Shown: positions 2,657 to 60,898 of the stretch, in pieces
Layout of the letters: the number at the start of each line of letters is the position of its first letter
Position numbering within the stretch: the stretch's first letter is position 1
Source of the DNA: a virus
IMG/VR virus record: IMGVR_UViG_3300035181_001974
Direction: 5' to 3' (one strand)
DNA length: 64,000 bases
Notes under the pieces: generated by a model
What the model saw: only the letters and a program-made list of their open reading frames with translations
Database searches by the model: none
What the model was told of the DNA's origin: nothing
Translations under genes and position numbers: made by a program

Positions 2657-2890
2657 CCGACGCTTCACAGCGTGGTAAGCTCGAATAGGCACGGGTTGAA
2701 CAGGACATCTGACCGGTGGTGTACCACCGCATTGATGATCATTTCACGAAGGCTGAATGAATTTGTCACGTCGGGTACGCTGTGATGGGGTGCGCATGTA
2801 ACCGCCTGAGCCGGGCTAAACACTCGGAAGGTGAATGCGAGAACGAACTAATGACCCCGACGCGAAGCTCAGCGTGATCGGGTTTTCTTG

Positions 2891-2960
2891 GAGGCGTGGG
2901 CCACTGGAGGCCACTCCCCTGTCTAGGGAATGTACGCGGGTTCGAATCCCGTCGTCTCCG
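2891..2960 (+). tRNA. tRNA-Asp(GTC)-like (loop CTGTCTA, T at 37)
   Basis: acceptor GGAGGCG/CGTCTCC, D GGCC/GGCC, T-arm GCGGGTTCGAATCCCGT, CCA encoded. Confidence 0.45.
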
Positions 2961-2980
2961 CCAAGTTCTTCATTCATCAT

Positions 2981-3052
2981 GCCGGCGTCGTTCAGTGGCT
3001 AGGACGCCGCGCTGTCTACCCGGAAACGGGGTTCGAATCCCCCTCGCCGGTG
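2981..3052 (+). tRNA. tRNA-Asp(GTC)-like, second copy (loop CTGTCTA)
   Basis: acceptor GCCGGCG/CGCCGGT, D GTTC AGTGGCTA GGAC, T-arm GGGGTTCGAATCCCC, CCA encoded. Confidence 0.45.
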
Positions 3053-3076
3053 CCAAGATACGTCTTCTCAGTTCAC

Positions 3077-3150
3077 AGGGGTGTGATGTTCAACGGCTAG
3101 CATGGCCGCCTCCAAAACGGCTCGTCTCGGTTCGAATCCGAGCACCCCTG
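3077..3150 (+). tRNA. tRNA-Trp(CCA)
   Basis: perfect acceptor AGGGGTG/CACCCCT, anticodon loop CTCCAAA, T-arm TCGGTTCGAATCCGAG, CCA encoded. Confidence 0.5.
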
Positions 3151-3155
3151 CCAGT

Positions 3156-3250
3156 CACCGTGTTTGAGGAAAGTTGTGAGGTTCACAGAATCTTACCACG
3201 CGAAAGCGAATGCGGCTGCTATCGCAACGTCTGTTCGATCCAGACCACGG
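3156..3250 (+). tRNA. long (class II-like) tRNA-like gene, anticodon unresolved
   Basis: acceptor CACCGTG/CACGGTG, T-arm GTCTGTTCGATCCAGAC; about 94 nt. Confidence 0.25.
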
Positions 3251-3260
3251 TGACGCTTAT

Positions 3261-3333
3261 TGTCCGGTCGTCTAAATGGGAGGACCCTACGCTCTGAACG
3301 TAGAAAATCCAGGTTCGAATCCTGGGCGGGCAG
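3261..3333 (+). tRNA. tRNA-Gln(CTG)
   Basis: anticodon stem CTACG/CGTAG, loop CTCTGAA, Glu/Gln-type D-arm TCGTCTAAATGGGAGGAC, T-arm CCAGGTTCGAATCCTGG, 3' ..GCAGCCA. Confidence 0.55.
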
Positions 3334-24061: not shown

Positions 24062-24156
24062 GGACCCGTGGTGTAACGGGCATACACGGTGTTGCTGTTC
24101 CTCCATGTCAGGAGGTTACGGGCACCCGACAGGGCGGTTCGATCCCGCCGGGTCCA
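24062..24156 (+). tRNA. long (about 95 nt) class II-like tRNA, anticodon unresolved
   Basis: perfect acceptor GGACCCG/CGGGTCC, D GTGT/ACAC, variable-arm hairpin CGGGCACCCG, T-arm GGCGGTTCGATCCCGCC; 11 extra nt before a CCTCC/GGAGG stem with 6-nt loop ATGTCA. Confidence 0.35.
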
Positions 24157-24161
24157 CTAAT

Positions 24162-28246: not shown

Positions 28247-28480
28247 ATGGTCCCGCGGATCTGCAGCGGGCAGCTGGTCACGGTCGCCCCTGTCACGGAC
28301 GAAACGTTGGTCGAGGTTGACGACGTTGTCCTGTGCAAGGTCAACGGCATCCAGATGCTTCACAAGGTGTCAGCTATCGGCAGCGATGGTCGCTACCAGA
28401 TCAGCAACAATCACGGCCACATCAACGGTTGGTGCACGAGGAAGACCGTCTTCGGCATCCTCGTTGCCGTGGAGGACTAA
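28247..28480 (+). CDS. hypothetical small protein upstream of prfB
   Basis: 77-aa ORF. Confidence 0.4.
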   Translation: MVPRICSGQLVTVAPVTDETLVEVDDVVLCKVNGIQMLHKVSAIGSDGRYQISNNHGHINGWCTRKTVFGILVAVED

Positions 28481-28481
28481 C

Positions 28482-29151
28482 ATGGAAACTGTCATCATCG
28501 AGATCAGGGCCGCCGAGGGCGGCGAGGACGCAAGACTTCTCGTTCAGGAGCAGCTCCGGGCATACGCCAACGCGGCGGCCCGGAGGGGTCTTTGAGGCGA
28601 CTGTAATCGATGATCGACCAGGGATGGTGATGCTCTCTGTCTCCGGCCCAGGAACCCTGCAGACCTTTGCAAATGAAGGCGGCGGGCACAGGTGGCAGCG
28701 CGTTCCACCGACAGAAAAGCGTGGTCGTGTGCAAACGTCGACAGTGACGGTCGCGGTCTTAAACCCAGACACCGTCATCGGCCAGGCACTAGACCCCCGT
28801 GATGTGGAAATCACCACTGCCCGAGGCTCGGGTCCGGGCGGCCAAAATCGCAACAAGACAGAGTCGTGCGTCATCGCGGTCCACAAGCCCACCGGCTTTC
28901 AGGTTCGCATTGACAACGAGCGCTCGCAGCACCAGAACCGGGCGATGGCCTTCAAGGTCTTGGCCGCTCGCCTCTACGAGGCTGAGTCTGAACGGCTCTA
29001 CCGCGAGCGCTCCAACGAGCGCAAGCAACAGGTGGGCTCAGGTCAGCGCGGCGACAAGGTACGAACCTACCGGACACAGGACGACCTGGTCACTGACCAT
29101 AGGACAGGTCAGAAGTACAACCTGTCGAAGTGGCTCAAGGGTGACTGGTGA
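28482..29151 (+). CDS. prfB: peptide chain release factor 2 (prfB) with +1 programmed ribosomal frameshift; coding as join(28482..28592,28594..29151)
   Basis: N-terminal METVIIEIRAAEGGEDARL (PCRF) ending at in-frame TGA inside GGAGGGG-T-CTT-TGA-G (SD-like + CUU UGA shift site); +1 frame continues FEATVIDDR..., universal GGQ motif in RGSGPGGQNRNKTESC, RSQHQNR. Confidence 0.85.
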
Positions 29152-29192: not shown

Positions 29193-29654
29193 GTGTCAGC
29201 AAAGATCGACAGGTTCATCAATGAGTTCGCGTTCTTGTCGAACTTTCATCCATCCACCATCATCGTCGACGGCCGGCATTATGCCACGGTTGAGCATGCC
29301 TATCAGGCTGCCAAGACCCTAGACGAGACGCAACGTGAGATGGTGCGCAAGTCGAAGACGGCGGCCGAGGCCAAGAAGCTCGGCCGCTCTGTCACCCTCC
29401 GCGAGGATTGGGACCAGGTCAAGGTCGACTTGATGCGAAAGTTCGTCAAGGCCAAGTTCGAGAACCCGCTGCTCCGCGAGATGTTGCTGGCGACTGAGGA
29501 TGCTGAGCTCATCGAGGGCAACCACTGGAACGATAAGTTTTGGGGCGTTTGTCGCGGGCAGGGACAGAATTGGTTGGGTCGTATCTTGCAGGAGGTTCGT
29601 GATGAAATCAGGGCCGAAGTTGATGCAGAGTCAGCCCTCGATGACATTCCCTGA
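29193..29654 (+). CDS. NADAR (YbiA/DUF1768) family protein
   Basis: GTG start with GGAGG RBS; FLSNFHPS..HYATVEHAYQAAK..NHWNDKFWGV, a strong YbiA/NADAR signature. Confidence 0.75.
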   Translation: MSAKIDRFINEFAFLSNFHPSTIIVDGRHYATVEHAYQAAKTLDETQREMVRKSKTAAEAKKLGRSVTLREDWDQVKVDLMRKFVKAKFENPLLREMLLATEDAELIEGNHWNDKFWGVCRGQGQNWLGRILQEVRDEIRAEVDAESALDDIP

Positions 29655-60417: not shown

Positions 60418-60898
60418 TCCAACAATGTATCAACGTTTCTGCGCGAAGTTCATCGAGCCACCAACCCAGTGAATGAAGTACTCCTGCTCTGTCTCGTGAT
60501 ACATCGGTCCACAGGGCACCATGCGCCATGTACCGCCATAGCGATGATACTCATGACACAGATGATAACGTTGAAGCGGTTCTTCTGGCTCATCGCGCCG
60601 GAGTCGAAACTATTCAGCGAGCCTCTCTAGACCAGAGTTGTTGTAGAAGGCTGGATCACTCACGGAGCTCAAGCATTTGCTCGAGGCTACAACGCTTGCC
60701 GCAGTGATCACAGATAAAGGCAGTTTCCATGACGCTCCCGAAGGGACTTGAACCCTCAACGCATGGTGTTAGAATCCGTCACTCTGCCATTGAGTTACAG
60801 GAGCAGTGCCCCGAGTGGGAGTCGAACCCACGATCGCGGTTTTAGAGACCGCAGCTTTAGCCCGCTAAGCTACCGAGGCAAACCTCAAAATTGTACGG

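Follow-up and report, generated by a model that had tools for sequence, protein, structure and literature searches.

A predicted programmed +1 frameshift in an RF1-type release factor gene from tRNA-rich phage DNA

The frameshift in prfB, the gene for release factor 2 (RF2), is a textbook example of autoregulatory recoding. Here we analyzed a 64,000-nucleotide stretch of viral DNA (IMG/VR record IMGVR_UViG_3300035181_001974, hereafter the window), in which a cassette of the prfB kind interrupts a gene for a class-I release factor. The product of this gene is a class-I factor of the RF1 type and not RF2. Comparison with its relatives indicates that a programmed +1 shift is very probably needed to make it, as a 222-aa factor that lacks domain 1 and is encoded in the tRNA arrays of a huge phage.

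Layout of the interrupted gene and identity of its product

The window carries 46 tRNA genes in arrays, with the release factor gene embedded among them, as well as a baseplate-wedge homolog and a T4 gp30.3-like NADAR gene. The NADAR gene and a 77-aa ORF of unknown function are the neighbours of the release factor gene. Together with the presence of relatives on huge-phage contigs of IMG/VR, these genes bear out the phage origin given in a preliminary description of the locus. A 90%-identity cluster mate of the product sits on a 309-kb JGI contig, and the window has the appearance of a huge-phage fragment. An alternative genetic code was considered and rejected, as under code 11 ORFs already fill 52.8 of the 64 kb and each of the three stop codons is used to end them. 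No second release factor gene was found within the 64-kb window, a promoter and terminator scan around the gene gave nothing above shuffled expectation, and the GenBank phage collection held no DNA nearly identical to the locus or to a 20-kb stretch. The features of the gene and of its cassette are as follows.

28471-28476, + strand: initiation Shine-Dalgarno (SD) sequence GGAGGA, 5 nt before the ATG, read from the sequence
28482-28592, + strand: ORF0, frame 0, 37 sense codons, METVIIEIRAAEGGEDARLLVQEQLRAYANAAARRGL
28515-28532, + strand: EGGEDA, codons 12-17, aligned to GGEEA of T. maritima RF1
28582-28588, + strand: putative internal SD-like stimulator GGAGGGG, with its core GGAGG at 28582-28586
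28587-28589, + strand: 3-nt spacer between the SD core and the slippery codon, E-site codon GGU (Gly36)
28590-28593, + strand: slippery CUU_U, with CTT at 28590-28592 and a proposed re-pairing from CUU to UUU (+1)
28593-28596, + strand: gate, in-frame UGA followed by G at +4, read directly
28594-29151, + strand: ORF1, +1 frame, 185 codons and the TGA stop at 29149-29151
28705-28713, + strand: PPT, codons 75-77, PxT-type stop-codon recognition tripeptide of the RF1 type
28837-28845, + strand: GGQ, codons 119-121, catalytic motif for peptidyl-tRNA hydrolysis
Junction peptide of the joined window product: GLEATVIDDRPGMVMLSVSGPGTLQTFANEGGGHR

An upstream ORF ends at TAA 28478-28480, just ahead of the ATG at 28482-28484, and ORF0 in turn ends at codon 38 (TGA 28593-28595). 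The SD-like run is encoded by CGG AGG (Arg34-Arg35) and the start of GGT. Thus, the halt at UGA after a CUU leucine codon, the continuation in +1 and the upstream GGAGGGG, all three named in the preliminary description, can be read directly from the sequence. The complete cassette, GGAGG-GGT-CTT-TGA-G, occupies 28582-28596, and release factor homology goes on in the +1 frame behind it. The cassette of bacterial prfB is AGGGGG-N3-CTT-TGA-C (PMC12421855), with the same spacing as the GGAGG-N3-CTT of the window. The base at +4 in the window is G and not the C that marks a weak termination context; compared with UGA-C, which prfB and most relatives have, this UGA-G makes for stronger termination. 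The earlier wording that the site is exactly like that of prfB therefore stands for the elements and for the 3-nt spacing and fails for the +4 base and for the position of the site, which is not homologous to that in prfB. A second, independent JGI contig is 99.97% identical to the locus across 3,810 nt and carries the identical cassette with its UGA. Thus, the interruption is not an assembly or sequencing error, and the second contig does not restore a continuous frame.

To identify the encoded factor, the 222-aa protein obtained by joining ORF0 and ORF1 was compared with release factor profiles. The best NCBIfam families were the RF1/prfA models TIGR00019 and NF001859, with 219 and 213 bits, followed by the RF2/prfB model TIGR00020 with 135 bits and the PrfH model TIGR03072 with 95.9 bits. 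All of these scores lie below the cutoffs of the models (400 and 423 for the RF1 equivalogs, 370 for RF2 and 166.65 for PrfH), and the RF1 match spans only positions 105-330 of the 347 in the profile. Pfam detects RF-1 and only positions 101-194 of PCRF, i.e. its last half, starting from residue 3 of the protein. A phmmer search of PDB sequences ranked RF1 chains first with 160 bits, ahead of RF2 (about 102) and PrfH (69), and the alignment with RF1 is unbroken across the frameshift junction. The recognition loop RWQRVPPTEKRGRVQTS aligns with RVQRVPVTESGGRIHTS of T. maritima RF1. The window loop RVPPTEK is of the PxT type and matches RVPVTES of T. maritima RF1, while the RF2 tripeptide SPF is absent; the RF1-type determinants Q-R-V-P-x-T and T-S-T are kept in this alignment.

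The structural model agrees with this assignment. AlphaFold (AF2) models the joined protein with a mean pLDDT of 86, and of at least 90 over residues 1-90 including the junction, with a strand at 3-12, a helix at 15-34 and a strand at 38-45. In a Foldseek comparison the top 22 matches were ribosome-bound RF1 or mtRF1a with a TM score of 0.88 and an rmsd of 2.4 Å; the TM score was 0.81 for RF2 and 0.65 for PrfH. The preliminary assignment of the gene to prfB and RF2 is therefore not upheld by profiles, loop or fold. Judged from its motifs, the product would be specific for UAA and UAG, and it is not expected to read UGA.

In the comparison with RF2 the match to the protein opens at position 117 of the 353 in the profile. 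This is the beginning of domain 2, and domain 1 is therefore missing. Domain 1 is the part of a class-I release factor that interacts with RF3 and L11. It was never found encoded in the upstream open frames of relatives, and in the window ORF0 opens right after the upstream stop; the full four-domain architecture of RF1 is thus not present. Domain 2 begins in ORF0 with its first strand and helix alpha-5, including the motif EIRAAEGGEDA, and ORF1 encodes the remainder of domain 2, then domain 3 with GGQ and domain 4 (Pfam PCRF and RF-1). We take EGGEDA to be the counterpart of the GG-x-E tip of helix alpha-5; in RF1 structures, this tip contacts the first base of the stop codon, U1. All relatives share the N-terminal motif, with E12, G13, G14, D16 and A17 invariant in one family alignment (A1), and G119, G120 and Q121 are invariant in both alignments made (A1 and A2). 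As ORF0 supplies an integral strand and helix alpha-5 of domain 2 together with the invariant EGGxDA, it is not a dispensable leader.

Conservation of the cassette across the family

In profile-based scans, the relatives numbered at least 528 in IMG/VR and 182 among GTDB genomes; of each set the best 80 were analyzed. For each locus, the frames of the two halves were placed by local tblastn with the two halves of the protein, which yielded 172 loci. The GTDB matches were overwhelmingly from Myxococcota, and for Archangium gephyra and Minicystis rosea they lie on complete chromosomes; A. gephyra SDU49 and M. rosea DSM 24000 are among the carriers. The genome loci have a local GC content of about 0.68, flanks that look cellular and rarely an adjacent tRNA gene, and the 80 genome loci share no conserved neighbour or operon partner, RtcB-like or other. 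In about half of the viral relatives, tRNA genes lie 1.5-3 kb away or closer. On a neighbour-joining tree, the phage sequences are mixed in with the bacterial ones. Public gene calls consist almost everywhere of the +1 ORF only (170-197 aa, 77-86% coverage). In the JGI calls, the 37-codon ORF0 stands as a gene of its own.

The best relative in the GenBank phage collection, found by tblastn, is LR745208.1, a 485-kb uncultured phage with 47% identity. It has the same arrangement of an ATG, 37 codons, CGGAGGGGTCTTTGAC and then the +1 frame. The shift was present in all of nine IMG/VR relatives at 45-74% identity. Over the whole set, 144 of the 172 loci, from huge-phage contigs of IMG/VR and from Myxococcota genomes, change at this same codon into the +1 frame, in which their C-terminal part is encoded. 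Every one of these 144 frameshifted loci has CTT before the stop. Such a recurrent need for a +1 shift at one codon, always behind CTT, is far beyond chance. The codon choice is specific to the site, as all 131 unique genes have CTT for Leu37 and CTT makes up 9.3% of the 2,051 other Leu codons in the same genes. The gating stop itself is variable, with TGA in 110 of the 144 loci (76%), TAG in 30 (21%) and TAA in four (3%).

Next to the stop, the base at +4 is C in 111, G in 27, A in six and T in none of the 144 loci. Among genes with Asp38, all 70 use GAC at this position; elsewhere in the same genes GAT accounts for 35% of Asp codons (P ~1e-13). This indicates that U is avoided at +4. A U in this position strengthens termination.

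Upstream of the slippery codon, Arg34 is CGG in 95 of 109 genes (background 21%) and Arg35 is AGG in 76 of 82 (background 9%), a 4- to 10-fold enrichment, and it is this choice of CGG-AGG that builds the SD-like element. GGAGG at exactly the prfB-like offset was found in 73 of 133 unique cassettes, with about 25 more showing a partial match, and the 3-nt spacing between SD core and CTT is conserved in the family. About 20% of the family, counted over unique cassettes, have no recognisable SD-like element, which suggests that the element is helpful and not obligatory. Conversely, CTT and GGAGG are both missing from the 11 relatives whose ORF is continuous; a parallel absence of the elements is reported for prfB genes without a frameshift (PMC12421855).

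Purifying selection acts on ORF0 and ORF1 alike. Family alignments contain no conserved internal start codon after the junction, where residue 48 is M, I, L or F. RNAalifold predicted no conserved pairs at the site in 26 diverse cassettes. Transcriptional slippage was considered as another route into the +1 frame and rejected, as the T run is too short. The conservation of the cassette exceeds what the protein sequence would need, and such selection at the nucleotide level, together with the conservation across the family, points to a genuine programmed +1 frameshift. On these comparisons we consider it very likely that the +1 shift is real and required, and the view that a prfB-style cassette interrupts a phage-borne class-I release factor gene in a programmed manner is thereby strengthened.

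Some members without a frameshift have an in-frame stop early on, at codon 38 or within codons 44-52, with TGA at codons 44 and 52 in one type of phage. From this one may suspect that an early stop as a gate is what the family has conserved. In the low-GC relative LR745206.1, which has in-frame TGAs, a general recoding of TGA was not seen over 50 kb.

Proposed mechanism and what the gate may sense

By analogy with prfB, we propose that translation would initiate at the ATG at 28482 and proceed through 37 codons. With CUU and its peptidyl-tRNA-Leu in the P site and with UGA in the A site, the ribosome would then pause, while GGAGG, 3 nt upstream, would pair with the anti-SD of 16S rRNA. This pairing would favour re-pairing of the tRNA on UUU, and decoding would restart at GAG (28594) in the +1 frame. 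Shifting in vivo, its stimulation by the SD-like element and the identity of the factor that tunes it are what we infer.

As shifting would compete with termination, the output of full-length protein should rise whenever the gating stop is read slowly. Since the RF1-type product is not expected to read UGA, host RF2 would most likely set the gate of the window gene. Whether this gate serves to sense termination capacity across factors, through host RF2, we judge to be evenly balanced. RF1 and RF2 share UAA, and one may speculate that RF1-type activity made while RF2 is saturated would free RF2 for UGA. Compared with such cross-sensing, classical autoregulation at the window UGA, as put forward in the preliminary description, is unlikely, given the predicted specificity of the product, the variable stops of the family and the lack of a link between stop and recognition loop.

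Sensing through RF2 does not fit all members, as 24% of the cassettes carry UAG or UAA. Moreover, cassettes with UGA, UAG and UAA are interspersed on the neighbour-joining tree and have been swapped repeatedly within clades, their stop frequencies resemble ordinary stop usage in GC-rich genomes, and across the family the stop shows no correlation with the recognition tripeptide. Together, these observations leave room for a factor of relaxed specificity or for a simple attenuator.

A relaxed factor that reads all three stops, or UGA besides UAA and UAG, could truly autoregulate, and the repeated interchange of stops within clades would be simplest to understand if the identity of the stop were irrelevant to the sensor. 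An altered decoding is also suggested by the variable tripeptide: PxT (PPT in the window) occurs in about 60% of the family, others have PPN, PPG or PPS or a deleted loop, and SPT is also seen. However, the window protein keeps both RF1-type determinants, and loop variant and cassette stop vary independently, so we regard relaxed specificity as unlikely.

Alternatively, the cassette could be a fixed attenuator without any sensing, which would hold a potentially toxic release factor to a constant low fraction. The apparent neutrality of the stop would be expected in this case, overexpression of release factors is harmful in bacteria (PMC12421855), and the gene lies among strongly expressed tRNA arrays. 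Yet the avoidance of U at +4 and the selection for the SD-like element argue for a tuned shift efficiency, stop-dependent shift sites are intrinsically sensitive to release factor levels, and a weak ribosome binding site would cap expression more simply. A fixed attenuator therefore seems rather improbable to us.

The position of the site bears on the origin of the cassette. In prfB the shift occurs at codon 26 in E. coli (PMC12421855), within domain 1, whereas in the window gene it falls at residues 37/38 in domain 2, at about position 150 of the release factor profiles and more than 100 residues away. As the two sites are not homologous, the cassette was not simply kept from prfB, contrary to what had been proposed, and is best read as an independent, convergent acquisition. 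It is very improbable that the gene is a phage copy of prfB with its inherited autoregulatory cassette, whose RF2 product would terminate at its own UGA. The SD-like element, CUU, UGA and their spacing would agree with such a copy, as would the stop usage of the window, where TGA is indeed the commonest stop, as previously stated (42 of 71 ORFs). Against it, the RF1 model leads the RF2 model by 84 bits and PDB sequences rank RF1 above RF2, the loop is PPT and not SPF, domain 1, the home of the prfB site, is absent, and 30 relatives gate with UAG, which never gates prfB (PMC12421855). Finally, the absence of any recoding, be it through a pseudogene, an assembly error or a split gene with ORF1 made from an internal start, would match the gene callers, which give ORF1 alone or ORF0 as a separate 37-aa gene, and is scarcely credible in view of the independent assembly, the 144 loci whose frame breaks at one and the same codon while both ORFs are under purifying selection, the variable residue 48 in place of a conserved start and the modelling of ORF0 as an integral strand and helix of domain 2 with pLDDT above 90.

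Returning to the programmed shift, we tentatively propose that huge phages and Myxococcota have in common an undescribed lineage derived from RF1, devoid of domain 1 and nearly always gated by an early stop, mostly through a convergent +1 shift at codon 38 on UGA, UAG or UAA, which would act as a combined termination-capacity sensor and back-up release factor module. If this is true, it would represent the first natural programmed frameshifting in an RF1-type gene, and the UAG cassettes would be genuine RF1-type autoregulation, which reviews list as unknown. With its hundreds of members, the family would offer a natural experiment on why release factors are gated by stop codons, on whether a gate must be read by its own product and on how easily such a cassette evolves. 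It would suggest that large phages monitor the termination capacity of the host while flooding the cell with their own tRNAs. The annotation of phage RF1 and RF2 genes should also change, as the public calls are systematically truncated or split.

Comparison with known systems

Programmed frameshifting is known in prfB and not in prfA, according to a 2025 survey of 12,753 genomes, in which only 34 had a disrupted prfA, without conserved signals (PMC12421855). A review likewise describes RF1 genes as having no counterpart of the prfB frameshift (PMC5009743), the frameshift is reported as absent from the RF1 family (PMC1586002), and prfB is the sole release factor listed in GeneTack. A survey of bacterial release factor types covers RF1, RF2, ArfB and PrfH only (PMC6514570). 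We found no prior description of a frameshifted RF1-type gene in the literature searched, and programmed frameshifting in an RF1-type family thus appears not to have been reported before.

The window gene shares with bacterial prfB an SD-like purine run, a 3-nt spacer, CUU and an in-frame stop near the 5′ end of a release factor gene. As in prfB, no downstream RNA structure appears to be needed, and the stop lies in a weak +4 context, mostly C in the family although G in the window. Unlike prfB, the gene is of the RF1 type without domain 1 and has its site in domain 2. The gate may also be UAG (21%), and where it is UGA the product should not read its own gate. Furthermore, the family occurs in huge phages and Myxococcota and is not a housekeeping RF2.

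PrfH (RF-H) resembles the window product in that domain 1 is absent while a domain like that for codon recognition and the GGQ motif are kept. It differs in fold, with a TM score of 0.65 against 0.88 for RF1, its model scores the window product below cutoff, RtcB, with which PrfH is paired, is not a neighbour of the window gene, and PrfH has no frameshift.

Genes for RF1 and RF2 have been reported in huge and recoded phages (Al-Shayeb 2020, PMC7162821; Borges 2021 preprint, 10.1101/2021.08.26.457843). Like the window gene, these are class-I release factor genes of large phages; they occur with tRNAs and suppressor tRNAs in modules for the take-over of translation or for a change of code. Those reports mention no frameshift or truncation, whereas the window gene is interrupted and would need recoding, and unlike the recoded phages the window phage keeps to the standard code.

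Among viruses, the closest analogue is the eRF1-type gene of Mimivirus and Megavirus, which needs a frameshift and readthrough (Jeudy 2012, PMC3521657). There too, a viral termination factor is made by passing internal stops through recoding, and the authors read the recoding as a regulatory loop in the bacterial style (PMC3521657). In contrast to the window product, however, that factor is a eukaryotic/archaeal eRF1 of unrelated fold, encoded by a eukaryotic virus and recoded through other signals.

In-frame stops in relatives without the frameshift

In three non-frameshifted relatives of the mini-RF1 gene, an in-frame stop lies exactly at codon 38, the stop position of the +1 frameshift cassette in the family. 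Since this stop follows a non-slippery codon in each of them and no frameshift is present, we suggest that these are readthrough-gated forms of the gene. Early in-frame stops are also conserved among other relatives without the frameshift.

In-frame stops of non-frameshifted relatives
L019, 1501-2160: codon 38, context CTA TGA C
L020, 1501-2160: codon 38, context TAT TAG A
L045, 1501-2145: codon 38, context CTC TGA C
L002, L059, L073: TGA at codons 44 and 52
L003: TGA at codon 44
L062/L064: TGA at codon 44, TAG at codon 52
L032, L043, L060, L049, L081, L090, L141: TGA at codons 46-52

General TGA recoding left no sign in 50 kb of sequence surrounding the gene of L002 (L173, LR745206.1), where long open stretches bridge only three TGA codons versus seven TAA. 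Thus, the in-frame stops seem to be specific to the mini-RF1 gene.

Recognition loop and neighbouring genes

Loop statistics for the family set (L001-L172) showed that the stop-codon recognition loop, located at about 1716-1730 in L001, is variable: about 60% of members carry PPT and about 27% PPN, and the variants PPG, PPS, SPT and APN occur as well. In the 485-kb uncultured phage relative LR745208.1, four residues of the loop are deleted (HRVQRTSNGRIHSS). Given this variation, decoding specificity may differ between family members.

In the closest relatives of the window (L004-L008, L013, L017) the gene is preceded by tRNA-Leu(UAG) and tRNA-Met and followed by tRNA-Arg. On the 191-kb phage contig L009, a tmRNA gene with the tag peptide ANDNATASPALLAA is located at 2218-2576, approximately 400 nt upstream of mini-RF1.

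Gene following mini-RF1 and unusual tRNAs (ARAGORN) of the window
29193-29654, plus: NADAR-domain gene, T4 gp30.3-like (phrog_1017), directly after mini-RF1 on the same strand
60731-60805, minus: tRNA, anticodon CUA, amber-suppressor-like; weak anticodon stem
60806-60879, minus: tRNA, anticodon CUA, amber-suppressor-like, adjoining the former; canonical stems and anticodon loop
830-905, plus: tRNA, anticodon UUA, non-canonical loop (A33, U37)
24062-24157, plus: tRNA-like gene, 96 nt, four-base anticodon 'gttc', amino acid unassigned

The RF1-like factor of the window should compete with the CUA and UUA tRNAs at UAG and UAA. These tRNAs co-occur with an otherwise standard code in the phage. The 96-nt gene may contain an intron or encode an unusual tRNA.

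Annotation and chromosomal copies

Public gene calls (P0001-P0120) systematically predict the +1 ORF alone (170-197 aa), and in some predictions the 37-codon ORF0 is called as a tiny gene of its own. On L174, an independent JGI contig carrying the identical cassette, the calls at 2658-2771 and 2800-3327 are of this kind. The fragment is named 'peptide chain release factor 1' in databases.

The frameshifted gene is also present in myxobacterial chromosomes: in Archangium gephyra (L104, NZ_CP102578.1, 3540004-3546670), Minicystis rosea (L113, CP016211.1), L148 and about 70 further Myxococcota loci. The GC content of the myxobacterial loci is host-like (about 0.68), and no neighbouring gene is conserved next to them. 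Judged by these genomic features, mini-RF1 is in all probability a cellular accessory release factor as well, apparently unannotated as such.
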